Positions 1 to 64,000 of a DNA stretch of 64,000 bases are shown here, one piece after another (the first letter of the stretch is position 1; each line of letters opens with the position of its first letter). The position numbers and the translations under genes are program-made. The DNA is from a virus (Duplodnaviria > Heunggongvirae > Uroviricota > Caudoviricetes): the IMG/VR virus record IMGVR_UViG_3300029702_000002. One strand, 5' to 3'. The notes under the pieces are model-generated. The model worked only from the letters and a program-made list of their open reading frames with translations, did not search any database and had not been told where the DNA came from.

Positions 1-488
1 ACTTCTCCGCTTTGGAGTTCGGAACCATAGACGCAAGAGAGTCAGCCACGATACAGATTGGTGCTGATTCGGGGATAAGCTCTTCATCACGAACCAATTT
101 AAGTATTGTGCCGATCAACTCTACAGAGTCTTCGAAGGTATCTGGCTGCTTGTATACCCACTGACCGTCATCCTCATCTGCGTTCAGGCCATTGGCGACA
201 GCCAGGCCAACGTCAAAACTGTTTTCATGATCGAGGAATACCGCCAGACCATCTTGTTTTTGAGCGGAGATCATCGCTGCTGTTGCAAGGAACGTTTTCC
301 CTGCACTTGGAGGACCGAATACTTCGACGATACGACCACATGGGAAGCCGCCATCGTAACGACCAGAAATAGCTTTGTTTAACGGTGGAAAGCCTGTATC
401 AATCCAATGAGTTACTTTCTGAATTTCGTCGTTGCTACCGATTTTCTTTTTCAGAGCAAGTGCCAGTGCGGATTTTCCTTTTGCCATG
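1..488 (-). CDS. RecA-family recombinase, N-terminal 162 codons; gene continues beyond the window start
   Basis: Manual translation from ATG at 488..486 (GGAG RBS upstream) gives MAKGKSALAL...GRIVEVFGPPSAGKTFLA...QPDTFEDSVELI...IVADSLASMVPNSKAEK; these align with the RecA Walker-A region (GRIVEIYGPESSGKTTL), QPDTGEQALEI and IVVDSVAAL. No stop before position 1. Not in the ORF track because it is truncated. Confidence 0.75.
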
Positions 489-489
489 A

Positions 490-762
490 TCAGGCTCCTT
501 TTGTTTCGTTGATTCGTTTTAAAGCGGCGGATTCATCGAATACAATCGCATCGTGGTTAAGGAGTCTGGATACACGAGCGAGGATTTTTACGACCTGCTC
601 GCTGACTAATCCAAACTCGCGATCTGTCGCTTTCATTCCGGCAGCGCCTAGAATTGACGGCAGTGCGATGACAGCGTACTCACCGTGATAAAAGACAATC
701 TCTTTTGCCAGTTGGGCAGGGGTGGTTGTAGCGCCATTGATAATCGATTTAAGCATTAGCAA
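490..762 (-). CDS. hypothetical protein (90 aa)
   Basis: ORF track; tightly packed between exonuclease and RecA-like genes on the same strand; no recognisable motif. Confidence 0.4.
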   Translation of the reverse strand: MLMLKSIINGATTTPAQLAKEIVFYHGEYAVIALPSILGAAGMKATDREFGLVSEQVVKILARVSRLLNHDAIVFDESAALKRINETKGA

Positions 763-1751
763 TACCTTTCGAATGGAAGAACAAACACTTCAAGGTCTTC
801 AAGGAACGAACGGAAATTCAGCTCGTAGCACAGTTGCTCGAATGCTTTCACGTCACGATTGCCTTTGATTGTTTCGATTTCGGTAGGCGGAAACTTCGTC
901 TCAATCAGGTTCATTAGCGTGATGTTTCTCTTGAACGCTTCGAGCATTCGACAGCCTGTTTTCTCGTTGAAGGCATTCTTCGCTAGTTTGTTGAAGGCGG
1001 TCTTATGACGCCCTTTATTAACCACGATTGAGCCGTCGTTGATGCCGCGTACCATCGTTGCGACACTTCCCCATTCATGCAGCAGCTCTTTCGCACCGCC
1101 AGCACCAATGCCACCAACACCGCTAATGTTGTCCGAGTTATCGCCTTGTAATGCTTTTGCTTCCAAAAATGCGCGAGGCGTGGCGAATCCTGTCAGCTCC
1201 GCAAATTGCTCAAAATTAACCTGCTTGTTTTTGGCGTCTTCACGCAGGCTTACCCAGCTTACGTTTTCACGAACTAACTGAAGCCAGTCGCTATCGCCTG
1301 TTAACAGATAGATGTGTTCAACGATTGGCTGCGGTGCAATGCTGGCTACCAGCAGCCCGGCCAGATCATCCGCTTCTGCATCTTTTGCAATGAGTTGGGT
1401 AACTCCAAGCGCGGTCATCATTTTGAGGATGTATGGCTTCTGGATAGCAAAGCCTTCCTTCATCTTTTTCATATCAGGATCGTCGTCGCGATTTGCTTTG
1501 TAGTCCGGGTAAAAGTCGCGACGCTTGTCACTAAATCCATCCCAAAGAATCATAGGTCGGGCATGGAGGATGGAGGCATAACGACGGACGTTCTTAACAA
1601 AGCCGAAAGCAGCCTGTACTTCCATTTCGCCGTTGTGCAATTTGTCAGATTGTTGGTGGTAATAACCCAGGCTATTGCCATCTACGAAGAGATAATTCAC
1701 CGGTACATTCCTTCCAAAAAGTAAGGCGTCCGTAGACGCCTTACTGGTCAC
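756..1751 (-). CDS. 5'-3' exonuclease / flap endonuclease (FEN, T4 RNase H / T5 D15-like)
   Basis: 331 aa; acidic metal-site motifs DGNSLGYY and LLTGDSDWLQLV; glycine-rich H3TH-like segment GVGGIGAGGAKELL. Confidence 0.75.
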   Translation of the reverse strand: MTSKASTDALLFGRNVPVNYLFVDGNSLGYYHQQSDKLHNGEMEVQAAFGFVKNVRRYASILHARPMILWDGFSDKRRDFYPDYKANRDDDPDMKKMKEGFAIQKPYILKMMTALGVTQLIAKDAEADDLAGLLVASIAPQPIVEHIYLLTGDSDWLQLVRENVSWVSLREDAKNKQVNFEQFAELTGFATPRAFLEAKALQGDNSDNISGVGGIGAGGAKELLHEWGSVATMVRGINDGSIVVNKGRHKTAFNKLAKNAFNEKTGCRMLEAFKRNITLMNLIETKFPPTEIETIKGNRDVKAFEQLCYELNFRSFLEDLEVFVLPFERYC

Positions 1752-1760
1752 GTAATGGGA

Positions 1761-2789
1761 TTACAGAGAGTCCAGCTCTCTCAGTAGGTCATCCAGACCT
1801 TCATCTTCCGTCGCAGATGCGGCTGCTACAGATGTCGCTGCGACTGCTTCAGACTCTTTGACTGATACTGCAACGGCAGCGGAACTTGCTTCTGGTTTAA
1901 ATTCAGTTTCAACGGCACGGAGGATTTCTTCATCAACCAGACTGGTTGGTTCAGAAGCTGGGGTATGAGCGGTAGCTACAGCCGTCGCTCCTTCTGTATG
2001 ACCAGTGACAGAGCCAAATCCAGGTAGTGCCGCAGCCGATGTTTTCGCGGTTGAGGAAATTGCTGGTGCAGATGCTGCGGCAGTTGGTGCAGCGATGCCA
2101 ATCAGACGACCCATAGTGCGAACTGTCGACAGAAGACGAGTTTCATCAGCCTGATTTGCGTATGCGATCAGATCATGCTGGGTATTCCAGAATTTATCTT
2201 CGATATCGCCTTTGTAGACTTTACGCTTAGGCGAGACGTCATATTTGGTATCGCGACCAGAGCCAGTACGTTTAATCAGGAATGCGTAGCCTTCCTCTTT
2301 GCTCAGTGGATTGCCGATATCATCAGCGATGTCTTCGGTGATTGCTTTGCAGATATCATCGAATACAGTAGACGGCAGCTCGATTAACTGGCATTTCTCA
2401 GCATCTGCGAAATCCTCACGAGCAGAAAGAATGCCGTTGACCAGGTAGCGAGGAGTGGCACGCATTTGACCGATGCGTTCTTCCATTGCTTTGTTACCCT
2501 TGTGACGAGCGCGACCTTCCATCACCATTTCGCATAGCTGACAAGCGCGACCGTGAGTATGTTGCTCACAAATATAAGCGTTGGTTGCTTCTTTACCTTC
2601 CTCGTTCTGATACTTAACGTAGTGCATACCGAAAGTCTGGAAGAACTTACCGTTTGGGTCGTCTTTATTCGGGAAGATGCGGATATAGTTGACGCCGTCT
2701 TTTAAGCGAGTCAGATCAACGTTGTTACCACGTTTGGCGGCAATGTCTTCACGAGTTTTGTTAAGCAAATCAAGTAATGTCTTAGACAT
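1761..2789 (-). CDS. probable single-stranded DNA-binding protein
   Basis: 342 aa; Cys/His cluster CEQHTHGRACQLCEM (zinc-site-like); Ala/Ser-rich linker; acidic C-terminal tail EDEGLDDLLRELDSL; sits between exonuclease and DNA-metabolism genes. Confidence 0.5.
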   Translation of the reverse strand: MSKTLLDLLNKTREDIAAKRGNNVDLTRLKDGVNYIRIFPNKDDPNGKFFQTFGMHYVKYQNEEGKEATNAYICEQHTHGRACQLCEMVMEGRARHKGNKAMEERIGQMRATPRYLVNGILSAREDFADAEKCQLIELPSTVFDDICKAITEDIADDIGNPLSKEEGYAFLIKRTGSGRDTKYDVSPKRKVYKGDIEDKFWNTQHDLIAYANQADETRLLSTVRTMGRLIGIAAPTAAASAPAISSTAKTSAAALPGFGSVTGHTEGATAVATAHTPASEPTSLVDEEILRAVETEFKPEASSAAVAVSVKESEAVAATSVAAASATEDEGLDDLLRELDSL

Positions 2790-2906: not shown

Positions 2907-3338
2907 TCAACGGGGAGTAATAAAGCGTTCAGAGCCTAATCGCTCTAATTCAACAATGGCCATCTTCGACGCCTGAACAATCATGTCTCGGCGATGCGAA
3001 AAGGCGGCAACAGCATGTTTGTATATGTCTGCGATGTGCCGTGCTTCATCCAACTTCTGCCGTTTAGATAGATACTGTGGGTTTGTTTTAACCTTAGCGT
3101 CTAGTACAGATTCGTTGAACTTAATGCCGTTCATACTCAAGTTTTTACGCTCTGTGTCGTATAGCTTTGCTTCAACAGCTTCAAGGTTAAGTTTTGCCTC
3201 TGCGACACTTCTTTCTGCATGGGCGAGCTTTGAACCATACTCCATCAACAGGCGAGGTTGCTGACGCCAGACTTCCTCCAGATTGTCGCGGTCGAATTCA
3301 AGATCGGACATGATTTTTTCGTAGATATCTGCACTCAT
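2907..3338 (-). CDS. hypothetical protein, possibly a recombination mediator (UvsY-like size and position)
   Basis: 143 aa, helical/charged; adjacent to SSB and recombinase module; assignment by size and context only. Confidence 0.3.
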   Translation of the reverse strand: MSADIYEKIMSDLEFDRDNLEEVWRQQPRLLMEYGSKLAHAERSVAEAKLNLEAVEAKLYDTERKNLSMNGIKFNESVLDAKVKTNPQYLSKRQKLDEARHIADIYKHAVAAFSHRRDMIVQASKMAIVELERLGSERFITPR

Positions 3339-3467: not shown

Positions 3468-4448
3468 GTGAGAATAAAATCAATGAATAAAGCTAACAAT
3501 CAAGCAAAAGCAGAAAAGCCTGTGCCGACTAAAGAACTGTCCCCACCCCCAAAAGTTAAGACTGCGAGGTCAGCAGCAGAAAAAAATAAAACTGAAGGCA
3601 TGACATATCCGAAGACCAGCGCAGAAGGACACGCTGGTGAGTACTTATTTGCTTATTGGATTTCTCGTTATTTCAAATGGCCTTGTCGACTGCTGGATAT
3701 TGATATGGGGTTGGATGCACAGGTTGAAATCTATGAAAATGAACTTTCTACCGGTATGTTTATTGGCGTTCAGGTAAAAACCACCTCACGCACAATGAGT
3801 AGTAGTCTAGGAGTACAGATCCCCTATAAAAATTTAAAGTATTGGGGGGAATGCGATTTCCCTATAGTGATCGTTTTAATTTGTCTAAACGAAGATAATA
3901 AGCATGAAGAGCCAGATATTTACTGGCGGCATTTAGACAAACAAACCATCGCATCGTTATCAAGTACAGCGGATTACAATAACTCAGGAAGTACATCAGT
4001 AACATTTAACGAAGACCAATATCTGAAATCTCCAAGGGATAGAGAGAAATGGCTTAGATTATGGCTATCTAGTGAAGATCTGAAGATCATTGAACGATGC
4101 GAAGGTATTGAGAGAAACATTACTGCATTAGGGAAATTCTTTGAAGAAACAATTGTGGACGGGGATTTAAAACAGGGACTACCAACTCTTGATTTTTTTC
4201 GTAATTTAAACGATTTGTTGGACTCATATGATGAGGTGGAATTGGCTATTAGAGGTAACAATCGACTAGAGTATCTATCAGAGGAAGTTAAATCACTTAA
4301 AAAATGTCATGAGCGCTATATGCCTAAAATTATGTATGCCTTTGAACAGGCGTGCGAATCAAATAGTGTCATGATGAGTGATTTCGATCCGTATTCCCCT
4401 ATAAATAATAAACTCCATACTATACTAGTTAATAATAGAATTTATTAA
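3468..4448 (+). CDS. PD-(D/E)xK-like putative nuclease (DUF4365-like), accessory gene
   Basis: 326 aa on the opposite strand to its neighbours; visibly AT-rich; candidate catalytic triad in DIDMGLDAQVEIY...GVQVK (D, E, K spacing typical of PD-(D/E)xK); own terminator directly downstream. Confidence 0.55.
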   Translation: MRIKSMNKANNQAKAEKPVPTKELSPPPKVKTARSAAEKNKTEGMTYPKTSAEGHAGEYLFAYWISRYFKWPCRLLDIDMGLDAQVEIYENELSTGMFIGVQVKTTSRTMSSSLGVQIPYKNLKYWGECDFPIVIVLICLNEDNKHEEPDIYWRHLDKQTIASLSSTADYNNSGSTSVTFNEDQYLKSPRDREKWLRLWLSSEDLKIIERCEGIERNITALGKFFEETIVDGDLKQGLPTLDFFRNLNDLLDSYDEVELAIRGNNRLEYLSEEVKSLKKCHERYMPKIMYAFEQACESNSVMMSDFDPYSPINNKLHTILVNNRIY

Positions 4449-4623: not shown

Positions 4624-7600
4624 TCATTTGCTAATAGTCTCCGCTACCTCTGCAAGAATTGCTTCCAGCTTTTCGCCTTCCTCTGGGCGAAAGTACAAAA
4701 TATTCGGGTTAAATCCGTAGAAAACGGTCACATCCAGCTCCGGCAGATACTCTTTGCGTCCAACCAGGTCGGATGGTTTGCTCTTGTTGTTGAAGAGCGA
4801 CGTCGCCCGGCTGCCACACGTCAGCACATAGGTCGGATGCACCAGATTGATCTCTTCACGTATAAAGTCGGTGAACTGGCCGATCTCGTCTTTGGTGTAG
4901 TCTTTTTCTTTGTCTTTAACCTTCTTGCAAACGCCTGTGACATAGAGATCGCCCATGCGTAAATCTCCAGCCGTCAATAGCTTGGCCTTAAAATCGTCGT
5001 ATCCGTTCTCCATGAAGTAACCGGTTCGAGCATCATTGCCGTTCGCATTGTCCAGAATGATCATGATTTTCGGCTTAATGCCAATGCTGGGGCGGATTAG
5101 TTCATCACCTAAGCCCATTTCAGCCGCCATCCGTGTCATGAGTGCGTTAATTTCAGCCGATCGTTTGGGGTTCATCTCAAACGGACGTGAGGCTTTAACT
5201 GCGTCTATGACAAGGTTTCCCATCAATTCTGCCTGGTCGCGGAGACGCTCTGGATCAGTTGCTGGCAGACTACCTGGCTCGATGGATGCAAACGCACCTA
5301 CTTTTTGCAGTGATTCGCGCACTCGACTATTACAGGCACGTTTCTCGACAGCTTCTTCGAATTGCGCCAGTGACTCGAATTTGCCGCCAACTTTTTCTCG
5401 CGCTCTCATGATGGCTTGGCAGCCATTCTCAGAACACCCCTTCACAGCAGAGAAGGGCGCATACAGAACCTGGCTGCCATCTTCAAGCGTGCGGATCTCG
5501 ATTCGGTTAGATGACACGTTAACGTCTGGTGGCAATACGCGAATACCATAGGTCAGCGCATCTTTAACCAGCCCTTGGTGTTTATCTTCGCCAAGAATAG
5601 TGAGAGCAGCAGCGAAAAACTCTGCGGGATAATGAGTTTTCAACCACATAGATTGATAACTGATTAAAGAATAAGCAACGGAGTGTGATTTATTGAACTG
5701 ATAGGCTCCGTTTTTCTCAAATGCGGTCCAGATCTCCTTCGCTTTCATCTCTGATAGCCCTGGATGTGACGCTGTAACGCGTACTGCGTTTATAGGTAGT
5801 TTTGCGCCGTGCTCAAGTGCCTCTTCGACAGTTTTCAGAGTTCCGTCTTCGCATTTAAAATGTTCCGCACGGTGAATGCGCTGTGTAGTGCCATCTTCCA
5901 GCTCAACGTCTATCCAGCCAGCTTGAGCCTGAACGATGAACTTCTCGCCCATGCTCTTCATTTTTTCCATGTTCTTCTTACCGATTGCGGAACGCACAGC
6001 GTCAGCTTCAGCCATTGTGAAGCCGGCAAGCAATCGAGTCGCGTTCATCGTCTGTTCCTGATAGAGAATCACGCCATTTGTTTCCGCGGTAAGTTCATCA
6101 AGAACGGGGTGTAATGATTCCGGCGTCATAAAGCCTTTGGCGACAGAAACATAGTCATCCAACATGCCTGATTGAATTGGCCCCGGCCGGAAGAGCGCAG
6201 TTGTAGCGACGACCGTTTTAAAGCTCATTGGCTCAATTCCACCACCTAAATCTTTAAGCAGCTTGCGCATTGGGCCTGATTCAAGCTGGAAAACACCTTG
6301 AGTGTACCCAGCAGCAAAACCATCCAGCACCTTGCGATCTTCAAGAGAAATGGCATCAAGATTGATATCTTCACCTGTGTTCTCTTTTATGTAGCGTTTT
6401 GCACTATCGAGCAAATCGAGAGTTGCCAGGCCAAGCACGTCCAGCTTAATTAGGCCCATAGCCTCGCAGTAACGCTTGTCAAATGCGATACAACGCGCGT
6501 CACCACGGCGCTCAACCGGTGTACGTTCTGTCAGAGGAACACCTGCTACGATCATCCCTGCCGCATGTCTACCAAAGCCACGCATAAGGCTTTGTAACTT
6601 GCAGGCTGCATTGAATGCATCAGGATATTTTGTTGCGTATTTGTCGAGACTTGCCAGTTGTTCGCGCAGCTCTTCCAATGGAAGGCTATCATCCTCGACG
6701 TTCTTCAGTTCTTTTGATACCGCCATATCTGCGGACTCCACACCATAAATACGAGCGGTATCACGTAGTGCAGAGGCTGCGCCCAGGTAGGTGAAGTTCG
6801 GAATACCCGCAACGTAATCTTCGCCGTAGCGTTCATTCAGATACTCGATCACCTCATGGCGACGTGCCTGGCTGAAGTCCAAGTCCGCATCCGGCAAGTC
6901 GAGACGCTCAGGGTTGATGAAACGCTCAAACAGAAGACCGTGACGGATTGGGTCGACGTTGGTTATGCCTATGCACCACGCCACCAGAGAACCGGCAGAG
7001 GAACCACGACCAGGCCCAACGGGAATGCCAGTTTCACGACTATGATTCATCAGATCGCGTACCATCAGGAAGTAACCACAAAATCCCAGGCGAGTCAGCG
7101 TGTCCATTTCGTACTTTAGCCGCTCAACATAAACCCTGTTCTCAGAAGCAGGTGGTGTGTAGCCAAACTCTTTTGTGGTAAGACGTTTACGCAGCCCTGC
7201 AACAGCCAGTTTCATAAGCGTTGCAGGCTCGTCGTCTGCCATCTTTGGCAGTGCTGGCGGCAATTCATGCCAGCGCCATGTGCAGGCATCGATAATGGTA
7301 TCCTGCGTTGTTGAGGCCATTGCAGCTGTTACCGGCACATCCATGCGAACGGAGAAGGCTTTAAGCGCCTCAAGGAGATGGCGGCGACCATTGACGGCGT
7401 TATCTCGCTGGTGGGGGATACGCAGACGATGCGGCTGGTCGATTTTGATGTTGTTCGTAACCATGTGCGCAATGTCTTTAATGTCTGCATCGTCGATCGA
7501 TTCGTAATAAGCGGGATAGAACGCCACTGGCTCTATTTTCAATGCGCTGGCGACTTTCATCGCCCGGACGTTAATCTGGTCGTAGAATGGGGTAGGGTGC

Positions 7601-8142
7601 GGATAAACCACACTATAGAAGTTGTCTTTTCCACCCGCTGTAATCAGTGTGCTTATGATTTTTGCAAAATCGTTGCGTTGGAACACGCTACCGATGTCGG
7701 AAGTAAGCAGGATGATGTTGCCTTTGGCATATGTAGAAACCAACTGTTCGAGCGAGAGACGCGGTACAAAGTAGAACTGTTCTCGTGTGTTGGCCGCCGT
7801 CATTAGTTCGCAGATGTCGCGATATCCTTGCTCATTTTTAATTAGAGCGGTAAACGAGTAGTTACGTCCCCGCTCTAATGATTCCATACATCTCATAGAT
7901 TCTTTAGCAAGTTTAGCCCGGTGCTCGTATGTGGGATCATCAACAATGTTTAGTTTCACACCACAAATAACCGCCATGTCGTCACCAGCGGCACGTTGTA
8001 GTGGAATAACGCTCGCAATATTCATGCTATCTGCTGAAATTACAGCGGTGTAGCCAGCTTCTCTGGCAATCTTCACCGCGTTTTCTGCTTTTAGAGCCGA
8101 CTCCCCAAGTGAGAAGTCAGTTCGAACCATCAGTGCCTTCAT
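4624..8142 (-). CDS. dnaE: DNA polymerase III alpha subunit (DnaE family)
   Basis: 1172 aa; GPGRGSSAGSLVAWCIGITNVDPI, FNKSHSVAYSLISYQSMWLKTHYPAEFFAAALT and FRPGPIQSGMLDDYV match conserved DnaE blocks; N-terminal PHP region lacks the usual His pair (MVRTDFSLGES where E. coli has HLRVHSDYS). Confidence 0.85.
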   Translation of the reverse strand: MKALMVRTDFSLGESALKAENAVKIAREAGYTAVISADSMNIASVIPLQRAAGDDMAVICGVKLNIVDDPTYEHRAKLAKESMRCMESLERGRNYSFTALIKNEQGYRDICELMTAANTREQFYFVPRLSLEQLVSTYAKGNIILLTSDIGSVFQRNDFAKIISTLITAGGKDNFYSVVYPHPTPFYDQINVRAMKVASALKIEPVAFYPAYYESIDDADIKDIAHMVTNNIKIDQPHRLRIPHQRDNAVNGRRHLLEALKAFSVRMDVPVTAAMASTTQDTIIDACTWRWHELPPALPKMADDEPATLMKLAVAGLRKRLTTKEFGYTPPASENRVYVERLKYEMDTLTRLGFCGYFLMVRDLMNHSRETGIPVGPGRGSSAGSLVAWCIGITNVDPIRHGLLFERFINPERLDLPDADLDFSQARRHEVIEYLNERYGEDYVAGIPNFTYLGAASALRDTARIYGVESADMAVSKELKNVEDDSLPLEELREQLASLDKYATKYPDAFNAACKLQSLMRGFGRHAAGMIVAGVPLTERTPVERRGDARCIAFDKRYCEAMGLIKLDVLGLATLDLLDSAKRYIKENTGEDINLDAISLEDRKVLDGFAAGYTQGVFQLESGPMRKLLKDLGGGIEPMSFKTVVATTALFRPGPIQSGMLDDYVSVAKGFMTPESLHPVLDELTAETNGVILYQEQTMNATRLLAGFTMAEADAVRSAIGKKNMEKMKSMGEKFIVQAQAGWIDVELEDGTTQRIHRAEHFKCEDGTLKTVEEALEHGAKLPINAVRVTASHPGLSEMKAKEIWTAFEKNGAYQFNKSHSVAYSLISYQSMWLKTHYPAEFFAAALTILGEDKHQGLVKDALTYGIRVLPPDVNVSSNRIEIRTLEDGSQVLYAPFSAVKGCSENGCQAIMRAREKVGGKFESLAQFEEAVEKRACNSRVRESLQKVGAFASIEPGSLPATDPERLRDQAELMGNLVIDAVKASRPFEMNPKRSAEINALMTRMAAEMGLGDELIRPSIGIKPKIMIILDNANGNDARTGYFMENGYDDFKAKLLTAGDLRMGDLYVTGVCKKVKDKEKDYTKDEIGQFTDFIREEINLVHPTYVLTCGSRATSLFNNKSKPSDLVGRKEYLPELDVTVFYGFNPNILYFRPEEGEKLEAILAEVAETISK

Positions 8143-25356: not shown

Positions 25357-25399
25357 GTGCTTTCCTTTGTTTTTTAAACAAATTGTTTTCTAGTATTAG

Positions 25400-29806: not shown

Positions 29807-29807
29807 A

Positions 29808-52062: not shown

Positions 52063-52074
52063 TTCTCGCTCCTA

Positions 52075-52101
52075 CAAAAAGGGTGGGCGTATAGCCCACC
52101 C
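52075..52101 (-). terminator. rho-independent terminator downstream of the major capsid gene
   Basis: gggtgggc-tatac-gcccaccc hairpin on the minus strand followed by TTTTTG; strong candidate attenuator after the most highly expressed structural gene. Confidence 0.65.
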
Positions 52102-52135
52102 TTTAACATAGATAACTACTTATCTACTACACTGA

Positions 52136-53011: not shown

Positions 53012-53036
53012 CTATCAATTCCCTTTGATTTAGATG

Positions 53037-53924: not shown

Positions 53925-53945
53925 AAAAATTCCTTTTGTTACTTA

Positions 53946-55520: not shown

Positions 55521-55533
55521 TTGAATAACCTTA

Positions 55534-55551
55534 GATAATTACTTACCTATC
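55534..55551. promoter_or_regulatory. intergenic motif GATAATTACTTACCTATC upstream of the portal gene
   Basis: Motif-family member 14-30 nt upstream of the minus-strand start at 55520. Confidence 0.4.
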
Positions 55552-56803
55552 GAGAACCACCAAGAATAACACGGTTTTTGACTGGATACCTACGATGTAC
55601 TGGATAGCCCAATGCGTCTGCACTATGCTCAATGCCACCTGTCTTATCCATATCTCGTGTTCCAGGCTTGTAGATGACTTTTTCCAGTGAATCAATCAAA
55701 TGCTTGCACTTCGGATCGATATACAACCGGATATCTCCAGATGCGGTCATCAGCATTCGGTTAACAGCATTAACACGATCCGCAATTGGCGGGTGCTTTT
55801 TCGAATAATCGACACGTAAGAATCCCTTCTCTTTGAATATGTCGACGTCAGACTCCCCGCGAGCATGTTGGCGATAAGCACCTGCCGGATCTGGAAATAC
55901 CGTTATCTGTGATTTCCAGCGCCAGAAGCGTCTCTCAAGCTCATCACAAACCTCTGCCGTGTTAGAGGAAAAGAGCACCAATTCATCAATTGCCCATAGC
56001 TCACCATTTGGCTGAGGTTGCAAAATTACTGAAGACATCGGGTCAATGTTGAAGTCCTGCCCTACCCATATAGGCAACCGAGGGTTGAACTGAAGCGGTT
56101 TTACATGCACGTTACGATCGAACGGGTAGTAAACGCGCCCGGACATGTTCTCAAAGCTCGCCAGGTACTCCTGAGCGAACGATTTCGGGTCCATATCGTT
56201 CTTAGCAGCTTCAATTTCCGCCGTAGGCACAAACGGAGAATCGGCAGTTACAAACTGCCAGCTCTTCCACTGTCCCTTTCTTTGCAGCTCTACGTTCTGG
56301 CCTATAGTCCACAGTTTGTGAAATTCCGAGAAACCTTTTGGCGTACCAATGATCAGTGCACCGCCGCGTGTCGATGAAAGAGTAGGTCGTAACACCTTGT
56401 ACCAGGTGTCAGCCTTCATATCCTGAAATTCATCAAGCACTACAAAATGCAACGCTACGCCGCGCAGAGTGTCAGGCTTATCAGCACCTTTGAGGGCGAT
56501 CTCCGAACCGTTCTTCAACACGATTGTCATCGTGGTGTCGTTCTTTTTCCTAACCCACTTACGAGGCAGAACTTCCTGTAGATCGTCCCACAAAATCTGG
56601 CGAGCCATCTGGTAAGTAGGAGCGACATACCAGACCCTTTGCTTTTTTTCCTTTGCCGCCGCACGAATAATAGTGGAGATCGACAACCGGGATTTTCCCC
56701 AGCGTCGACCAGCACAAACAACTTTAAATCGATGCGGAGACTGGAAGACTTTCATCTGTCCAGAATGCAGTTGCACAAGACTGAGCGAGGACGGGATTGC
56801 CAT
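55547..56803 (-). CDS. terminase large subunit
   Basis: 418 aa; N-terminal Walker A-like VVCAGRRWGKSRLS; Walker B-like HFVVLDEFQD; start overlaps the small-subunit stop. Confidence 0.7.
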   Translation of the reverse strand: MAIPSSLSLVQLHSGQMKVFQSPHRFKVVCAGRRWGKSRLSISTIIRAAAKEKKQRVWYVAPTYQMARQILWDDLQEVLPRKWVRKKNDTTMTIVLKNGSEIALKGADKPDTLRGVALHFVVLDEFQDMKADTWYKVLRPTLSSTRGGALIIGTPKGFSEFHKLWTIGQNVELQRKGQWKSWQFVTADSPFVPTAEIEAAKNDMDPKSFAQEYLASFENMSGRVYYPFDRNVHVKPLQFNPRLPIWVGQDFNIDPMSSVILQPQPNGELWAIDELVLFSSNTAEVCDELERRFWRWKSQITVFPDPAGAYRQHARGESDVDIFKEKGFLRVDYSKKHPPIADRVNAVNRMLMTASGDIRLYIDPKCKHLIDSLEKVIYKPGTRDMDKTGGIEHSADALGYPVHRRYPVKNRVILGGSR

Positions 56804-57435
56804 TATTCGTCCTCCCCTTCACTTCCATCATCTGTCGCATCAAATTCGCTTAGAGCTTCTTCTTCCAACGTCTCAAGCAATTCGTCATCGATGATTTCAG
56901 GCTCGTCGTCTTCCTGACGTAATTTCGCCACCTGGGAAGGCGTAAGCTCACCAAATACCAGGTTCGGAATTTCTTCCTCGTCATTTTCCGCATGATCCAT
57001 GCCCAATGCTTTGGACGAAACTTCAAAGCATTTTGCAAGGGTATTACTGGCTCTCTGTAAGCTCTTGAGAGAATCCTCAATCGCCCCTAAAGGCTTACCC
57101 TCACGTTTGGCCGTAGTGACTTCGACCATCACCATCTGCCCCAACGCATACGCCCAGCCGTCATAACGTGTACGACGTTCTTCTATCTTTTCCGCACGGG
57201 CTTTAGCGCGAAGCTCTGCGTCAGATTTAAGAGACTCACGAACCATCTTCCCAACAGAGTCCGCGCCTTTCTCTAATCCTCGCTTTTTGAAATGTCTGGA
57301 GAGTGTTTCACGACGAATGCCGTACTCTTCCTCCAGCTTTGAGAGTGTATATTCGCCTGACGTCCATTTGGCTTCAGCTTCGGCCCACTCCGCTGGTGTC
57401 AGGCGAGTTTTTACCTCGTCTTTTTCGACCGTCAT
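56803..57435 (-). CDS. terminase small subunit (DNA-binding)
   Basis: 210 aa; N-terminal HTH-like region (LSKLEEEYGIRRETLSRHFKKRG); acidic C-terminus; coupled to the large subunit. Confidence 0.5.
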   Translation of the reverse strand: MTVEKDEVKTRLTPAEWAEAEAKWTSGEYTLSKLEEEYGIRRETLSRHFKKRGLEKGADSVGKMVRESLKSDAELRAKARAEKIEERRTRYDGWAYALGQMVMVEVTTAKREGKPLGAIEDSLKSLQRASNTLAKCFEVSSKALGMDHAENDEEEIPNLVFGELTPSQVAKLRQEDDEPEIIDDELLETLEEEALSEFDATDDGSEGEDE

Positions 57436-57552
57436 AGATCCCTCTAAAACACACAGAGCGCGTCCATGCGCTCTAAAACAACTTGTTTACTGCATTTTCT
57501 AACCAACTTGTTTTCTGGGTTGTTTAATTAGGTCTGGGCATGTCTTATTAAG

Positions 57553-57607
57553 CCTGCTTCCGTATATATTTAATAAGTTACTTATTATTTATATATACAG
57601 AAGCAGG
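57553..57607. repeat. 55-bp palindromic element, copy 2 of 2
   Basis: Identical to 26257-26311; lies 118 bp upstream of the terminase small-subunit start. Confidence 0.85.
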
Positions 57608-57907: not shown

Positions 57908-58798
57908 TTATGCCGGTAAAGCAATTTCTAACGGTTTATCCAAAGGTTGTTTGTCGAATGCCAGCAGTGGCAGCGTGTCAGGCAGTCGACGACCAAAGTC
58001 AGGGTTTCGATACACCCCATACAACGGAGACGTAAAGCTCAGGTTGTGAATGTCCTTGAGCAACTTCACAATGCTGGCCTCGTCCACCAGACTGTCGGCA
58101 ATGTCCTGAATCGTCGTGCCACGATTCCGCCCAGCTTTTGCCAGGGAACTGTTCTTATGGTAGTCCGCCACCAGATCACGCAGTGCACGGCGACGACGAG
58201 ACTCGCTCATTGCGAACAACTCTTTGACGATCGCCTCGTTATCACCCGGGTCGGAACGAAAATGGCGCTGGAATACACGCAGTGCACTTTCATAGCTCTT
58301 CGGTCGCTCAGGGCGGATGAACTTAAACCCTGCTTTCATGGCGAAGGGATTGTATTTGCTCATCGAGGACTGGATCTCAATGATTGGCCGGTCATGCATC
58401 CTGCTAACCAGGTTAATCATTCGATAAGAGACGCCTACGCCACGATACTGAGTATCCACAACTGAGCGACTGATCACCGCAAAGTTGTTATTCACGTACC
58501 GACCCCAGTACTGGTTAGCCACGGTGGTATTAGTGGTTGGTTTCAACTTAGGAAACATGCGGTGGCGAGGTGCCAACAGTAGTTTCGGGTAAGCCATAAC
58601 CACGACGCCCACCAGACGGTCATCAAGTTCGCAGCGATAGTAAGTTGGCGCGAAAGGTTTGCCGTCTGTTTTGTAGTGAAGCGACTTAAGAGCGTGCCAG
58701 TCCTCTACAGTTCCCTTTGTAACAGTCATTCGCTCCAGAAAGTCCAGATGACGCGGAAACTCTTCAGGGCGGTAGCGTTTAATGATGATGTCCGTCAT
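57908..58798 (-). CDS. GNAT-like acetyltransferase-fold protein with C-terminal extension
   Basis: 296 aa; GNAT motif A/B-like AVISRSVVDTQYRGVGVSYRMINLV and PFAMKAGFKFI; last gene of a four-gene coupled operon. Confidence 0.4.
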   Translation of the reverse strand: MTDIIIKRYRPEEFPRHLDFLERMTVTKGTVEDWHALKSLHYKTDGKPFAPTYYRCELDDRLVGVVVMAYPKLLLAPRHRMFPKLKPTTNTTVANQYWGRYVNNNFAVISRSVVDTQYRGVGVSYRMINLVSRMHDRPIIEIQSSMSKYNPFAMKAGFKFIRPERPKSYESALRVFQRHFRSDPGDNEAIVKELFAMSESRRRRALRDLVADYHKNSSLAKAGRNRGTTIQDIADSLVDEASIVKLLKDIHNLSFTSPLYGVYRNPDFGRRLPDTLPLLAFDKQPLDKPLEIALPA

Positions 58799-59460
58799 GA
58801 ATGGACCTCATCATGACTACCATTGTGATATTCCACCTTCACGCGTTCTTTGTAGTGCTTGGTGATCTGCATATCCGGGCGCAGCGCGTTCTTCAGGTCT
58901 TCGTGAGTCGTCGCCACCATTACCGTCGCACCAACCTTTCGCGCGGCACGCTGGAGGTTAGACGCCACAACCTGAGCGGTTACACGGTCGAGAACAGCGC
59001 CGAACTCGTCAGCAGCCCACACTTTAGCGCCTGACTCAATCAGTTTGGCAATCTTGAGACGATATTTCTGGCCGTCTGACATTTCAGAAGGCTTGCGAAC
59101 AAACAGATATGCATCGTTCAGACCAGCCATAGATAACAACCCAAGCGCATCACTGGTCGTTTTGCCCAACTGATCGATGACGTTAACCTCATTATCGAAG
59201 GTAAAATCATCGATGGAGGCTACAGACAGCCCTTCATCCTTCATCTGTCGTTGCAACTCGCGCAGCACAACGGATTTGCCGGAACCGGATTGGCCGGTGA
59301 TGTACACCACATCGCCCTGCTTCACTTCCAGCTCCAGATTGTCGTAAAGCGTCCACTCTTTTTCGTCCAGGCCAAGCCCGAACGACTCAGCGATTTCCAA
59401 CGTGCGCGTGGTTTTATTTACGCGTGTCTGAAACGATATGTTGATGATGTATTTGCTCAT
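58795..59460 (-). CDS. ABC-type ATPase (stand-alone)
   Basis: 221 aa; Walker A GQSGSGKS; ABC-signature-like MSDGQKYRL; Walker B WAADEFGAVLD; H-loop-like ATTHED. Confidence 0.65.
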   Translation of the reverse strand: MSKYIINISFQTRVNKTTRTLEIAESFGLGLDEKEWTLYDNLELEVKQGDVVYITGQSGSGKSVVLRELQRQMKDEGLSVASIDDFTFDNEVNVIDQLGKTTSDALGLLSMAGLNDAYLFVRKPSEMSDGQKYRLKIAKLIESGAKVWAADEFGAVLDRVTAQVVASNLQRAARKVGATVMVATTHEDLKNALRPDMQITKHYKERVKVEYHNGSHDEVHS

Positions 59461-60158
59461 GCAGCCATCTCCCCGGAAGAGATCTTCTCCGCATATGCCA
59501 CAAATGCGTCTACCCCGCTTTCTCCCGTCATTTCTTCCATATGGGCAAGCAAATCACCAACAACAATGGCAGAGCCAGCAGGGAGCGTTTTAAAGCCCAA
59601 TACGTCGACAACACGTACTTCTTCCGCTGCAACTTCACGACTGATCTCGGTGTGTTCATCCTTCTGTCGTTTAGTTTCTTCGCCAAGATCGATAACTAGC
59701 GAGTCGGTGTCCATTTCTTCTGTCATACTGCCAACGAGAACATTCAACTCACGCTCTTCAAAGCCGAAAACCTCGATATCGTCCAGAACAAGCGACTCAA
59801 GCTCTTTCTGTAGCTTAATTGCATCGTAATCAATGCTGGCAAGTCGGTTATCTTCAAGGCGCTTCGCACGAACCTCGTCATCACTGAGATCATCGCGAAC
59901 AATAACCGGTACGCGCTCAAGTCCAGCAAAAATTGCAGCCTCACGGCGGCCGTGGCCAGTAATAATTACGTCGTTCTTATCGACCGTAATTGGCTGGTCA
60001 AATCCGCGCTTTTTAATGGCTGCGGCCAGATCTCGGATCTGCTGTTCATCATGCTTTTTGGCATTCATCTCATAGGGAATAAGATCTGCCGGGTCGCGAT
60101 ATACGATTTCAAACTTTTTGGTCATTACATACGCTCCTTGTAGTAGTCGACCAGCCAC
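59457..60158 (-). CDS. ParB-like nuclease-domain protein
   Basis: 233 aa; ParB/Srx-fold motif ITGHGRREAAIFAGLERVPVIV (compare ParB GERRxRA). Confidence 0.65.
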   Translation of the reverse strand: MAGRLLQGAYVMTKKFEIVYRDPADLIPYEMNAKKHDEQQIRDLAAAIKKRGFDQPITVDKNDVIITGHGRREAAIFAGLERVPVIVRDDLSDDEVRAKRLEDNRLASIDYDAIKLQKELESLVLDDIEVFGFEERELNVLVGSMTEEMDTDSLVIDLGEETKRQKDEHTEISREVAAEEVRVVDVLGFKTLPAGSAIVVGDLLAHMEEMTGESGVDAFVAYAEKISSGEMAA

Positions 60159-60823
60159 ACCAGAGCCTCACCAGCGTTCTCCATTTCATTACCGGTGTTA
60201 ATAGCCTGCTCTTTGATGATGTTTTTTATGGTTTCTGCAACACGATCTGACGCATCGAAAGTTACTTTGAAGCGCATGGTCTGATGTTCCGCACCCACAC
60301 GTTCGGTTTTCTCTCGTTTGTCGGTATCGACAGGCTCATCACTACCACGAGACAACGCCTCCAGTGCTTCAAGGTCGATTGCCGCCTCTTTTGCTAAAAC
60401 CATCGAGATTTCGTCGTCATACGGGGCGATTTCAGACAGTTGATAGTCAAGTTCTGACTGAATTTCTTCAATGAAGCGTTGCAATGCGATTTGGTCGTCT
60501 TCACCGTATCGCTCGTTGTCCACCAGTGACATCTGTTTAGCTACGACATCGCTAATTTTGCCCACAGAAAGCACCGGAACCGTTGAAATTCCTTGCTCAA
60601 TAGCAGCACGCCAGCGATGTTCGCCGCCGAGGATTTCAAAAAATCCATCTTCAAGTTCACGAGCCAAAATTGGCTTAAAAAAGCCCAATTTTTCGATAGA
60701 ACCTTTCAGTTTTTCAAAATTCTGCGCACCAACCGAATTGGTGTTCCAGGTATTCGGGCGAAGGTTGGCAACATCAACCTGCAAAATCGTGATTTTTACA
60801 TCCATTTTATTGCTACAATCCAC
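60125..60823 (-). CDS. ParB-like nuclease-domain protein (second paralogue)
   Basis: 232 aa; ILGGEHRWRAAIEQGISTVPV; first gene of the four-gene operon. Confidence 0.65.
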   Translation of the reverse strand: MDCSNKMDVKITILQVDVANLRPNTWNTNSVGAQNFEKLKGSIEKLGFFKPILARELEDGFFEILGGEHRWRAAIEQGISTVPVLSVGKISDVVAKQMSLVDNERYGEDDQIALQRFIEEIQSELDYQLSEIAPYDDEISMVLAKEAAIDLEALEALSRGSDEPVDTDKREKTERVGAEHQTMRFKVTFDASDRVAETIKNIIKEQAINTGNEMENAGEALVWLVDYYKERM

Positions 60824-60887: not shown

Positions 60888-62447
60888 ATGACTGTTCGGA
60901 TTGTATCTAACGCAGTTAATGCGCTTATTTCTGGCGCAGATGACAAGGTAAAGCAAATGGTGCAACAGATGTTGAGCTACGAAGTCGAGACTGGCGACTG
61001 GAAGGGCACAAGCACGATGTTCAACTGGAGTAAAAACTCGTTCCCTGCTGGCTTTGCCAAGCCTGTAGCGGCGAACTTGAACAAGGCGGGCATCAAATGT
61101 GTTCATATCCGCAAAGACAAAGCCCCGGCGCTTGGTAAACCAAATCCGGCGGTTAACCCATTCCCATACAATCCTGATTATGCGTATCAGGATCAGACTG
61201 TGGAAACACTGGTTCGAGAGGGAATGATGATTGCGCAGATCGCTACTGGTGGCGGGAAATCTAACGTTGCCTGCAAAGCAGCTGCACGTATCGGTCGAAT
61301 GACATTATTTTTAACAACCCGCTCTGTTCTGATGTTTCAAATGGCCGAAAACTTCCAGAGATCCATCGACTACCGCGCCGAAAATGGCGAACCGTGGTTA
61401 AAGGGCCAAAAGGTTGGAGTCATTGGCTCGGGTGAGTTCCAGGTATCACGACATATCAACGTCGCTACAGTTCAAACTCTGGCAAGTTTCCTTGAAGAAC
61501 CACCACGCGATGCAACACCAGATAAAAAGAGCTACCACCTCAAACGTCGGGAGTTGGTGAAACGCTTCCTTTCAAGTGTGTCTCTGCTTATTCTGGAAGA
61601 AGCGCATGAGTCTTCAGGCTCTAATTTCTATGACATTGCCAGATTATGTGTGAACGCAGACTATCGTCTGGCGCTTACAGCCACGCCGTTCATGAAGGAT
61701 TCGACGGAAGCCAACATGCGCCTGATGGCGGTGGCCGGGCGAATTGAAATTAAAGTCACAGAAAAGTACCTGATTGATCGAGGCATTCTGGCAAAGCCGT
61801 ACTTCCTTTATCATAAAGTTGCCTACAAGCCAGACGAGGCCAGAATCAAGGCCGAACTTGCCAACAAACACCTCAATTTTAGAGTTGGTATGAGCACCGC
61901 CTACCAAAAGGCTTATCAGTTGGGGATCGTGTATAATTTGGGACGTAACGAGGCCATAGTGCGCGAGGCATTGCTTTATAAGCAACATTCACTCAACTGC
62001 ATGACTCTGGTTCGTCTTAAACGCCACGGGCAAATCCTGATGGAGATGATGAAGGAGTCAGGTCTTAAAGTTGATTTCATCTATGGGGAATCTAACCAGA
62101 CGACAAGGCAAGCAAAGCTGAACAGTTTAGCGTCTGGAGAAATAGATGTTTTAATAGGCTCGACTATTCTGGATGTCGGTGTTGATGTGCCAAGCGTTGG
62201 TGCGGTCATTCTTGCTGGTGGTGGGAAAGCAGAAGTTGAAATGAGGCAGCGTGTCGGTCGTGGCTTACGAGCCAAAAAAAATCAGGCAAACGTGTGTTTT
62301 ATCACTGATTTCATTGACATTAGCAACAAATACCTGTTGTCTCACTCTTATGAGCGAAAACACATCATCGACACCACACCTGGCTTTGCAGAAGGTGTAT
62401 TGCCTATTGATGGAGCATTCGATTTTGGAGTTCTGAAACGAGATTAG
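60888..62447 (+). CDS. superfamily-2 helicase (DEAH-box-like)
   Basis: 519 aa; Walker A ATGGGKSN; DEAH-like LILEEAHE; C-terminal helicase motif VGRGLR. Confidence 0.7.
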   Translation: MTVRIVSNAVNALISGADDKVKQMVQQMLSYEVETGDWKGTSTMFNWSKNSFPAGFAKPVAANLNKAGIKCVHIRKDKAPALGKPNPAVNPFPYNPDYAYQDQTVETLVREGMMIAQIATGGGKSNVACKAAARIGRMTLFLTTRSVLMFQMAENFQRSIDYRAENGEPWLKGQKVGVIGSGEFQVSRHINVATVQTLASFLEEPPRDATPDKKSYHLKRRELVKRFLSSVSLLILEEAHESSGSNFYDIARLCVNADYRLALTATPFMKDSTEANMRLMAVAGRIEIKVTEKYLIDRGILAKPYFLYHKVAYKPDEARIKAELANKHLNFRVGMSTAYQKAYQLGIVYNLGRNEAIVREALLYKQHSLNCMTLVRLKRHGQILMEMMKESGLKVDFIYGESNQTTRQAKLNSLASGEIDVLIGSTILDVGVDVPSVGAVILAGGGKAEVEMRQRVGRGLRAKKNQANVCFITDFIDISNKYLLSHSYERKHIIDTTPGFAEGVLPIDGAFDFGVLKRD

Positions 62448-62753
62448 TTATGAGCGAAAAGAAAACAACTTATTGTCAGGTAGCATTGTCTGATAAGGCC
62501 AATGACAAACTTGGAAAGTTTCAAGTGAAACTAAAAGAAAAAATATCAAAATGTCTAAGGCTGAAGTCATAAATACCATTCTGGAACAATTGACAATGGC
62601 CGACTTTGACAAGGTTATATCTTCTGTCGGGGCTTCCGCTAAGACTCGTGAGAAAATCATGCGTATCTATGAGAACTCTAATATGACAAAGGAAGATCTC
62701 GAAACGCTATTAAGCAGATTAAAATAATCACGCTATCAATTAGGGAGACAAAG

Positions 62754-63218
62754 ATGAAGTCTCCCATACTGTTCACTTTCTGTTCTAAAACTATCATGAA
62801 ATACTCGCTTCTCCCTCTACTAACGTTACCAGTGTTGATGCTTACCGCGTGCCAATCACGCCCAATATCAATCCATGACGCCAAACCAGCACCGCAGGCC
62901 AAAGTGTTCAAGTATCAAAGCGCAGCGCCAGCTACGTTGGTGGTAATGAGAGACACAGGTTTTGTAGGAGCTGGATGTGATGCTTCCATTTTCATCAACG
63001 GCGAAACTGTCGCAAAACTGGCTACAGGCGAAAAAGCGACTTTCCATTTAAATGCCGGAGAATTAATTGTGGGTGCATCTCTTGAAGGTGCAGGTTTATG
63101 TGCTCTAAACCCCGCTCGTCAAGAGCGAGAAACGACTCTGAAGAATGGAGACACAAAAGCGTTCAGGGTGTTCACCAGCAATTCTGGTGACATCGACATT
63201 CTGCCAACAACTCTGTGA
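62754..63218 (+). CDS. lipoprotein (154 aa)
   Basis: Signal peptide with lipobox LTAC (LLTLPVLMLTACQSRP). Confidence 0.55.
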   Translation: MKSPILFTFCSKTIMKYSLLPLLTLPVLMLTACQSRPISIHDAKPAPQAKVFKYQSAAPATLVVMRDTGFVGAGCDASIFINGETVAKLATGEKATFHLNAGELIVGASLEGAGLCALNPARQERETTLKNGDTKAFRVFTSNSGDIDILPTTL

Positions 63219-63222
63219 TGAC

Positions 63223-63747
63223 ATGACAACCAAAGATATTACCTACGGTATCCAAGCTGAACTCTGGCCGCGAGATTACACTAACGTTGAAAAACTACTG
63301 ATGTTCTGGCGCAGAGAACAAATTCCTGTAAGGGTCACTCTCGAAGATGGCCAGGCGTTTTGCATGTACGTTTATGGCCTCATGCCATCTCGTAACAAAG
63401 TTGACCTTTGCCCAGCCCCTTTTGACAAAGAAAATCGTATAAGGCTCCCACTTGAACGCATTAGTACAATTGAATCAGGTGTGGTTGACAGTATCGCTCA
63501 CGATTTCAAAGGTCGACTAACAGTTCACCCTGATTATGTCGATAATCGGCCATCACGCCGCGATTTTTTTGCAATTTGCAACCAAGCCTACAAAGCAAAC
63601 AAATCTATAAGGGTGTACATGGCGGATGGCCGTGAAATTGAGGGGGTGTCAGCAGGCGCAGATGCTTGTCAGGTTACACTACGTGTCGAGAACGTTAGAA
63701 AAATAGTTGTTTTGTTCGATTGGGTTGAACGAATTTTGCCTTTTTGA
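63223..63747 (+). CDS. hypothetical protein (174 aa)
   Basis: Track ORF 63145..63747 overlaps the upstream lipoprotein gene; in-frame ATG at 63223 (MTTKDITYG...) lies just after its stop. Confidence 0.45.
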   Translation: MTTKDITYGIQAELWPRDYTNVEKLLMFWRREQIPVRVTLEDGQAFCMYVYGLMPSRNKVDLCPAPFDKENRIRLPLERISTIESGVVDSIAHDFKGRLTVHPDYVDNRPSRRDFFAICNQAYKANKSIRVYMADGREIEGVSAGADACQVTLRVENVRKIVVLFDWVERILPF

Positions 63748-63750
63748 GTT

Positions 63751-64000
63751 ATGAAATCGATATTGTTACCACCATTATTTTTACTTTGCTCAGTTGCGGC
63801 AAATGCAATGGACTATAAGCCTGTCATTCAGTCGCTGATGAATGACGTGTGCTCAACGTCTCAGAATGTATCAGTTTGCATGTATCAATTTTCGGCAGCC
63901 GTAAAAGCAGGAAAAGCGATAGGTGAGAATGTGGAACTGTGTAAGAAAGTGGCAAATGAAGAACGGGCAATGTTGGATTGCGAATCTAGCGAGTCATCGG
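63751..64000 (+). CDS. secreted hypothetical protein, 5' part only (runs off the window end)
   Basis: Manual translation from ATG 63751: MKSILLPPLFLLCSVAANAMDYKPV... (signal peptide, several Cys); no stop before 64000. Confidence 0.4.
   Translation, partial: MKSILLPPLFLLCSVAANAMDYKPVIQSLMNDVCSTSQNVSVCMYQFSAAVKAGKAIGENVELCKKVANEERAMLDCESSESS

Follow-up and report, generated by a model that had tools for sequence, protein, structure and literature searches.

A 64-kb viral sequence attributed to a pSLy3-type phage-plasmid of the SSU5 supergroup in Escherichia coli

The viral record IMGVR_UViG_3300029702_000002 supplies a stretch of 64,000 nucleotides (nts), hereafter called the window, in which the structural genes of a tailed phage share one DNA molecule with genes of plasmid maintenance. 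This raises the question of whether the sequence comes from a conventional lytic or integrating phage, or from a phage that persists as a plasmid. A preliminary description had argued, from the gene content, for a phage-plasmid resembling SSU5 and pHCM2. We are highly confident that the window is part of a temperate siphovirus living as a low-copy circular plasmid, namely a pSLy3-type phage-plasmid of E. coli that belongs to the SSU5 supergroup.

Source replicon and relatives

The alignment of the whole window places it on bases 5000-69012 of CP057798.1 (pRHB14-C22_3) with 99.98% identity. This record is a circular E. coli plasmid of 108,954 bp, typed as non-mobilizable and assigned to rep_cluster_488, of which the window makes up 59%; the circular, extrachromosomal source anticipated by the preliminary description is thus on record. 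In a megablast of plasmid records, the first 25 kb of the window matched three E. coli plasmids from pig-farm isolates, each of 108,954 bp, at 100% identity and 100% query coverage, and 1,328 of the 1,379 plasmid records matching the same 25 kb are typed as non-mobilizable. The window and CP057798 differ at four positions, by two substitutions and two indels. Around window position 46727, an in-frame deletion of 12 nts removes four codons (NSGL) from the tape measure gene relative to both CP057798 and Cyrano. At 62538-62543, the window reads A6 where CP057798 reads A7, which shifts the frame of a 92-codon open reading frame (ORF) following the UvsW-like helicase gene; an error in sequencing the homopolymer could account for this difference.

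When the 24-kb structural half was used as query, related DNA was found in 260 of 5,426 complete E. coli genomes (about 5%), at 444 places, every one of them on a plasmid and none on a chromosome. These counts bear on the possibility that the window represents a conventional integrating prophage, or a prophage lodged inside an unrelated plasmid, whose tyrosine recombinase would be a true integrase. Such a prophage would agree with the presence of a Phage_integrase-family gene beside a helix-turn-helix (HTH) regulator, and the nearby tRNA genes could suggest att sites. It is nevertheless hardly credible, because it fails on the plasmid-only location of the relatives and on the collinearity of the whole 108,954-bp replicon with SSU5, pHCM2 and pSLy3, three elements that are grouped as phage-plasmids and reported to be exclusively extrachromosomal (PMC7969092, PMC9600943). 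In addition, the 108,954-bp replicon carries a single Rep, and neither conjugation genes, nor a second Rep, nor a second backbone were found on it. The preliminary description had set its proposal against best matches to integrated prophages or a chromosomal context, and neither turned up, all 444 places being on plasmids.

Among phage records, the best matches are the Escherichia phages CMS-2020a, Cyrano and PhiR41_1 (92-99% identity), followed by Salmonella phage SSU5 (about 81%) and SSU5-like phages of Klebsiella (about 78-80%). Relatives were further compared by tblastn of 59 window proteins against the records of Cyrano, SSU5, pHCM2 and pSLy3, in all of which the gene order is identical to that of the window. 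Cyrano (= pLF82, OV696614) has 53 of the 59 genes at a mean amino acid (aa) identity of 97.6%, with 97.4% nucleotide identity and 85.9% of the window covered, and pSLy3 (NZ_CP015915) has 51 (96.8% aa; 96.2% nt; 86.6% of the window). The corresponding values are 51 genes for the S. Typhi plasmid pHCM2 (NC_003385; 85.8% aa; 80.7% nt; 69.2% of the window) and 47 for SSU5 (NC_018843; 86.9% aa; 80.9% nt; 70.8% of the window). A score restricted to the window and modelled on weighted gene repertoire relatedness (wGRR) reaches 0.68 with SSU5, 0.73 with pHCM2, 0.82 with pSLy3 and 0.84 with Cyrano; the published wGRR between communities of the SSU5 supergroup is 0.23-0.59.

Within this supergroup, SSU5_pHCM2 and pSLy3 are sister groups (PMC7969092, PMC12977533), and replicons range in size from 85 to 134 kb (PMC12977533), so that a replicon of 108,954 bp with a siphovirus-type module falls inside the range. 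The element is placed in the pSLy3 subgroup rather than in SSU5_pHCM2 because its nucleotide identity is 96-97% to pSLy3 and Cyrano versus 81% to SSU5 and pHCM2. Hence the comparison with SSU5 and pHCM2 yielded the collinear homologues that the preliminary description had predicted and upheld membership of the supergroup, while the narrower likeness to SSU5 and pHCM2 gave way to a closer one to pSLy3.

SSU5 itself is described as virulent (PMC5427195), which leads to another reading, in which a strictly virulent SSU5-like phage, present in a carrier state or as a culture contaminant, was deposited as a plasmid by mistake. This is very improbable, as hundreds of independent isolates carry nearly the same plasmid, and as the element has RepA with iterons, ParA, TacAT, and a module made of an HTH regulator and a recombinase that is missing from SSU5.

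Plasmid and virion genes

Genes were called by scanning about 60 ORFs of the window with Pfam, PHROGs, NCBIfam and PADLOC, together with the annotation of Cyrano. The window itself lacks a replication initiator. A RepA with a Rep3_N domain is encoded at bases 1-1095 of CP057798, about 4 kb outside the window, and RepA and its iterons (GTATGCTGTCAGCGG) together span 108829-1632 of this circular record. About 16 iterons are present, some 11 downstream and 5 upstream of RepA, in a layout like that of P1 and F. With the Rep of Klebsiella pJN2-26, this RepA shares 87% identity, compared with 48% for those of Cyrano and SSU5, from which it follows that the replicon module was exchanged. Judging from the sequences, the incompatibility type probably differs from that of Cyrano and SSU5.

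The partition pair claimed in the preliminary description starts with a small Walker-type ParA of 222 aa (27602-28270, minus strand), which matches the ParA_partition family NF041546 at 1.9e-33 over residues 9-213, as well as MipZ and CbiA. It lacks the N-terminal HTH domain, as in type Ib (ParF/ParG-like) systems. Its partner is a basic protein of 119 aa (27243-27602, minus strand; phrog_5111), which is 93-94% identical in SSU5 and pHCM2. By eye, the partner shows a basic tail followed by a pattern resembling strand-helix-helix. An AlphaFold2 model built on an alignment of 11 sequences reached a pLDDT of 63; Foldseek found no match to it in the PDB, and phmmer and profile searches of PDB sequences returned only noise. 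A comparison by hhalign with ParG, represented by an approximate sequence, gave a probability of 0.1. The partner also matches the aCcr1 family at 2.3e-4, below the cut-off of that family, and has no ParE/RelE match in Pfam at E ≤ 0.01. Two candidate identities, a ribbon-helix-helix (RHH) centromere-binding protein and the RelE/ParE toxin named in the annotation of Cyrano, were therefore considered and neither was confirmed by fold or profile searches. No centromere repeat array was found beside the par operon, where a single AAACAACTTGTTT dyad lies 36 nts upstream of parA. Of the proposed pair, ParA and a conserved small partner are thus present, and the partner may be ParB-like.

An RHH antitoxin gene, tacA (28589-28858, plus strand), is directly followed by a gene for a TacT/KacT-type toxin of the GCN5-related N-acetyltransferase (GNAT) family (28866-29387, plus strand). 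TacA matches TacA1 (PF08681) at 8.6e-26, with 90 bits against a cut-off of 21, and the toxin, annotated as KacT in Cyrano, scores 28.9 with Acetyltransf_1 against a cut-off of 20.7 and is also above the cut-off of Acetyltransf_7. The RHH/GNAT toxin-antitoxin module of the preliminary description is accordingly borne out.

The tyrosine recombinase (12706-13809, minus strand) contains a catalytic domain (PF00589, 2.9e-10; phrog_1, 4.8e-47) with motifs of the R..R..H..Y type. A sequence search of the PDB returned no solved homologue, and no target site was identified on the element. By analogy with Cre in P1, the enzyme probably resolves multimers rather than integrating, a role drawn from the absence of integrated copies among E. 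coli chromosomes; the tyrosine recombinase of the preliminary description is present, and its resolvase-like function is probable. The recombinase gene overlaps, tail to tail, the gene of the HTH regulator (12325-12711, plus strand; HTH_19, 7.8e-4; phrog_8, 1.3e-11), a putative lysogeny repressor. This regulator is 100% identical to CYRAN_45 of Cyrano, which is expressed in the Cyrano lysogen (PMC9928086). The two-gene module occurs in the window element, Cyrano, pSLy3, pHCM2 and pJN2-26 but not in SSU5, where a tRNA gene abuts cobT at the place that carries the module in the others. From this arrangement, it is possible that the missing module is the reason for the virulent behaviour of SSU5.

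In the sense of Ravin and of Pfeifer et al. (2021), phage-plasmids are recognized by a plasmid Rep and/or Par in combination with core phage functions and by an extrachromosomal, non-integrated state. ParA is encoded in the window, RepA with about 16 iterons elsewhere on the replicon, and packaging, capsid, tail and lysis functions are all encoded as well. With a circular plasmid as source, no chromosomal copies, and RepA, iterons, ParA and TacAT on the replicon, the view that this is neither a conventional lytic nor an integrating phage is well founded.

The virion and lysis genes form one uninterrupted run of about 25 full-length ORFs on the minus strand, 95-100% identical to those of Cyrano. 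Head and packaging genes (51142-57435), whose products are 100% identical to the Cyrano proteins, comprise TerS (56803-57435), TerL with a T4-type Terminase_6N domain (55547-56803), the portal (53946-55520), the scaffold (53037-53924; phrog_206), the major capsid protein (52136-53011), which has weak matches to other capsid families, and an Ig decoration protein with three Big_2 domains (51142-52062); a phrog_867 match also falls in this block. They are followed on the same strand by genes for adaptor, head-closure, neck and tail-terminator proteins (48557-50663; Phage_tail_terminator_6, 5.8e-16, and the annotation of Cyrano) and for an Ig-tagged tail tube (47736-48518; Big_2, 6e-26). Next come two tail assembly chaperones (47013-47680; phrog_893, phrog_1131), one G-like and one T-like. 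The T-like protein is read in the -1 frame, and its ORF shares with the 3′ end of the G-like one an overlap containing GAAAAAG.

The tape measure has 1519 aa counted from its ATG (42446-47005, minus strand; TMP_3, 4.4e-27; Tape_meas_lam_C). The tail tip proteins M, L, K, I and J (35171-42403, minus strand) are of the lambda type, with matches to Phage_tail_L (7e-97) and Phage_min_tail (4e-34), and with Phage_Tail_Tip, Phage-tail_3, FNIII-A_GpJ and NLPC_P60 with JAB as further domains. The length of the tape measure (about 1520 aa) and the lambda-type tip are in keeping with a siphovirus virion. The tail fibre (31040-35077, minus strand; Gp34_trimer, 5.7e-29) is a mosaic of 1345 aa, of which the N-terminal 480 aa or so resemble the fibre of SSU5 and the C-terminal part resembles side fibres of other coliphages. 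The full ORF of 1345 codons is supported because its N-terminus matches that of the SSU5 fibre and because the 1341-aa fibre of Cyrano is annotated at full length; the GenBank annotation of CP057798 gives the last 891 codons of the fibre only, plus an ORF on the opposite strand (window 33852-34535). Holin, endolysin and Rz genes (29555-30849, minus strand) are 96-100% identical to those of Cyrano and have homologues in SSU5. The preliminary description had spoken of a complete lambda-like siphovirus block. It is complete in that head, tail and lysis genes are all present; the likeness to lambda is confined to the tail tip.

Lifestyle and repeated cis-elements

Relatives illustrate how such an element may live. 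Cyrano has a measured copy number of 5.5 per cell, ciprofloxacin induces it 39-fold, and its siphovirus particles have been observed (PMC9928086); SSU5-like elements are packaged after mitomycin C treatment (PMC12977533, PMC9600943). In the window element, an iteron-controlled RepA of the Rep_3 type would fire the origin and set the copy number, the small Walker ParA and its 119-aa partner would segregate the copies, and the TacA/TacT addiction module would penalise plasmid loss. The tyrosine recombinase would resolve multimers, and the HTH protein would repress the lytic genes of the main strand. We infer that this copy is inducible as well. Following DNA damage and SOS induction, the genome would be amplified by its own replisome (DnaE, DnaB-like helicase, primase, ligase and FEN) with the use of a T4-style recombination set (RecA/UvsX-like, UvsY-like, gp32-like and UvsW-like proteins). 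TerS, TerL and the portal would then package the DNA into virions with an HK97-type head, a tail of about 230-260 nm, a lambda-type tip and the mosaic fibre, before holin, endolysin and spanin lyse the cell.

Several points weigh against this account. The element of strain RHB14-C22 is known from sequence alone, copy number and virions having been shown for relatives only. The authors of Cyrano label the ParA partner a RelE/ParE-like toxin. A pSLy3-type element of E. coli 166F4 is not inducible by mitomycin C (PMC9600943), and a Klebsiella relative is reported not to behave like a phage (PMC8969562). The four-codon deletion in the tape measure and the 1-nt frameshift of the 92-codon ORF set the window apart from its closest record. 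Except for the question of the ParA partner, these same observations would suit a "cryptic" plasmid of phage origin that no longer forms infectious virions and is maintained by vertical transmission only. We consider this unlikely, since the roughly 25 morphogenesis and lysis ORFs are full-length and close to those of Cyrano, which does form particles, and since the deletion is in frame and the homopolymer change may come from sequencing. A temperate phage that alternates between plasmid and virion is therefore retained as the preferred interpretation.

A 55-bp palindrome, CCTGCTTCCGTATATATTTAATAAGTTACTTATTATTTATATATACAGAAGCAGG, is present at window positions 26257-26311 and 57553-57607, and a third copy lies at 92913-92967 of CP057798. 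Across elements, the palindromes measure 53-57 bp and consist of an AT-rich dyad flanked by the GC clamps CCTGCTTC and GAAGCAGG. They are located ahead of terS, ahead of the operon containing phrog2500, helicase and primase, and after a Dam-like methylase gene. Exactly three copies, at the same three syntenic sites, are found in the window element, Cyrano, SSU5, pHCM2 and Klebsiella pJN2-26, and the 75 kb of pSLy3 that were examined contain two. The copy at 26257-26311 is thereby conserved at its syntenic site in five other elements. In pJN2-26, changes in one arm are matched by compensating changes in the other, so that the symmetry is kept. The GenBank records of SSU5 and Cyrano are both linearised inside the terS copy (window 57553-57607). 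No conclusion on a cos or pac terminus is drawn from these record ends, because an assembler break at a repeat explains them equally well. Candidate functions of the palindrome are an operator, a cos/pac element, a centromere or an origin.

A second repeated motif, the 13-bp dyad AAACAA-N-TTGTTT, occurs 17-20 times per genome in each of the five elements compared over their complete or almost complete sequence, versus about 0.3 copies expected by chance. In each element, 14-16 copies (about 80%) lie 10-80 nts upstream of the start of an ORF on the main strand, versus 2-3 for random positions. A -10-like box (GATAAT) precedes the dyad by about 12 nts, and the Shine-Dalgarno sequence follows directly after it. 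Copies with no or one mismatch are located ahead of the helicase operon (25376-25388), ahead of parA (28306-28318) and, twice, ahead of terS (57476-57488 and 57501-57513), and a copy with two mismatches precedes cobT (11782-11794). Among the papers searchable in full text, none contains the dyad or palindrome sequences.

Tentatively, and on the basis of motif positions, the dyads and the three palindromes could be operators of one element-encoded repressor. They would then constitute an undescribed immunity network extending over the SSU5 supergroup, similar to those of P1 C1 or RK2 KorB, which would tie plasmid maintenance to the silencing of lytic genes; the virulence of SSU5 would in that case be explained by its loss of the HTH regulator. 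We regard this as a doubtful but possible scenario, a dispersed set of operators for such a repressor being our preferred reading of the motifs. Candidate binders of the dyad are the HTH regulator, the ParA partner and an FljA-family protein annotated as "repressor of phase-1 flagellin" (63145-63747, plus strand; PF03614, 4.8e-83; phrog_1444), with conserved homologues in SSU5, pHCM2, Cyrano and pJN2-26. The 5′ untranslated region of fliC in E. coli K-12, a possible target of an FljA-like protein, contains no such dyad, and this protein may regulate the phage rather than flagellin. The dyads, the palindromes and the absence of the HTH gene from SSU5 could provide a handle on the switch between plasmid and phage in this group.

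Other genes and comparison with known systems

Much of the remaining sequence encodes replication and recombination proteins. At the left edge, positions 1-487 (minus strand) contain the N-terminal 162 codons of a RecA/UvsX-like recombinase, whose full ORF (CP057798 4413-5486; PF00154, 2.2e-42) runs past the window; the RecA-like gene listed in the preliminary description is thus confirmed as to its class, with only a part of it inside the window. The RecA of Cyrano is about 1.2 kb longer and its tblastn match falls in two pieces, which suggests the insertion of an intein or a homing endonuclease in Cyrano. Further along the same strand are a 5′-3′ flap exonuclease, FEN (756-1751; PF02739, 1e-23; PF01367, 6.9e-12), a T4 gp32-like single-stranded DNA-binding protein (SSB; 1761-2789; PF08804, 1.7e-66) and a weakly matched UvsY-like recombination mediator (2907-3338; phrog_231, 1.3e-4), annotated as such in Cyrano (CYRAN_52). 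They are followed by a DnaE-type alpha subunit of DNA polymerase III (4624-8142; PF07733, 1.3e-73; PF17657; PF14579; PF02811), a CobS-like AAA+ ATPase (8323-9558; AAA_5, 2.1e-15; TIGR01650 CobS, 5.9e-24, which is below the cut-off of that family) and a CobT-like VWA protein (9654-11762; CobT_C, 1.7e-82).

The minus strand also encodes an ATP-dependent DNA ligase (18211-19533; PF01068, 5.8e-13), a DnaG-like primase (22753-24006; DNAG_N and Toprim_2, both weak) and a DnaB-like helicase (24016-25356; DnaB_C, 3.9e-13), and the plus strand a UvsW-like DEAD/DEAH helicase (60888-62447; PF00270, PF04851, PF00271), called UvsW helicase in Cyrano. Three tRNA genes, tRNA-Ser(tga), tRNA-Thr(tgt) and tRNA-Asn(gtt), were found by ARAGORN at 16331-16783 (minus strand); Rfam scores two of them and, at the gathering threshold, reports nothing beyond tRNAs. 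With DnaE, primase, helicase, ligase, SSB, FEN, the CobS/CobT-like pair and three tRNAs identified, the large self-encoded replication set of the preliminary description was recovered. In P1, P7, D6 and SJ46, the tRNA region is about 90% identical to that of the window (16308-16787); by this sequence comparison, the Ser/Thr/Asn cluster is a module common to two otherwise unrelated groups of phage-plasmids.

Other genes vary among relatives. A DUF4365 protein (3468-4448, plus strand; PF14280, 2.6e-16) is a candidate nuclease or defence factor, with a weak PADLOC match (2.2e-10) to Aga_REase, a restriction endonuclease associated with prokaryotic Argonaute. Its gene is absent from SSU5, Cyrano, pHCM2 and pSLy3. 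The slot it occupies, between the UvsY-like gene and dnaE, is variable, being taken by HicAB in Cyrano and by different genes in SSU5 and pHCM2, and looks like a hot spot for accessory or defence genes. Adjoining the par operon, a GIY-YIG gene resembling the anti-phage defence gene PD-T4-3 (26423-27190, plus strand; PADLOC PD-T4-3, 1.3e-23; PF22945) occurs in pSLy3 as well, whereas Cyrano, SSU5 and pHCM2 lack it; PD-T4-3 defence genes have already been reported for clade J of pSLy3 (2025 preprint).

A Sel1 gene and an island of two genes with 36% GC (14001-16200) also belong to the lineage-specific accessory content. Neither island gene matches Pfam. The first (14060-14596) is absent from all the relatives compared, and the second (15244-16152; phrog_35492) is absent from Cyrano, SSU5 and pHCM2, whereas pSLy3 encodes a homologue. 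Just upstream of the packaging genes, a conserved block of four genes (57908-60823, minus strand) encodes a phrog_886 protein, an ABC-type ATPase and two proteins with ParB_N domains; SSU5 and pHCM2 share this block at 87-99% identity, and it lies 30 kb from the ParA operon. Taken together, the swaps of accessory genes and of the replicon fit the published picture in which phage genes are conserved and plasmid genes are variable. Outside the window, CP057798 carries a metG-apbC block (77195-80486) that is found at 223 plasmid places. Every E. coli genome has metG and apbC side by side on its chromosome, and the plasmid block shows about 89% identity to them, as if it had been acquired long ago from the chromosome of another enterobacterium.

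The phage-plasmid identity is already known, and the classification adds nothing new, since the plasmid is deposited and the pSLy3 type of the SSU5 supergroup is already catalogued and typed, and in part confirmed experimentally. The dyads and palindromes are by-products of the analysis that may be new. Elements of this kind often go under the label of "cryptic" or untypable plasmids. They can carry resistance genes, such as blaCTX-M-15 in pECOH89 and the pAnCo plasmids, or defence genes, such as the PD-T4-3-like nuclease gene here, and they spread by infection instead of conjugation.

Compared with known systems, the element shares with Cyrano the ParA pair, TacAT/KacT, the module of HTH regulator and recombinase, the lysis cassette and the virion genes. 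Cyrano differs by HicAB at the DUF4365 slot, by another gene at the PD-T4-3-like slot, by the lack of Sel1, by its 48% identical RepA, by the insertion of about 1.2 kb in RecA and by a divergent C-terminal half of the tail fibre. With pSLy3, the element has in common the LEM-3/GIY-YIG (PD-T4-3-like) gene beside the par operon. In contrast, pSLy3 lacks TacAT, DUF4365 and Sel1, and has as features of its own a type I restriction-modification system, a group II intron and a fourth tRNA (tRNA-Tyr).

SSU5 and pHCM2 both have the three palindromes and the dyad motif. They differ from the window element in lacking its accessory genes and in the divergence of the C-terminus of J and of the tail fibre; TacAT is absent from both, and the HTH regulator and the recombinase are absent from SSU5. 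P1 is a low-copy plasmid prophage with an iteron-flanked RepA, a Par system, an addiction module and Cre for the resolution of multimers. It is a myovirus with headful packaging and a type Ia ParAB-parS system, and has no virion or replisome genes in common with the window. P1 is nonetheless a functional analogue of the window element, which it resembles in its set of genes for a low-copy plasmid lifestyle and in its tRNA region (about 90% identity).

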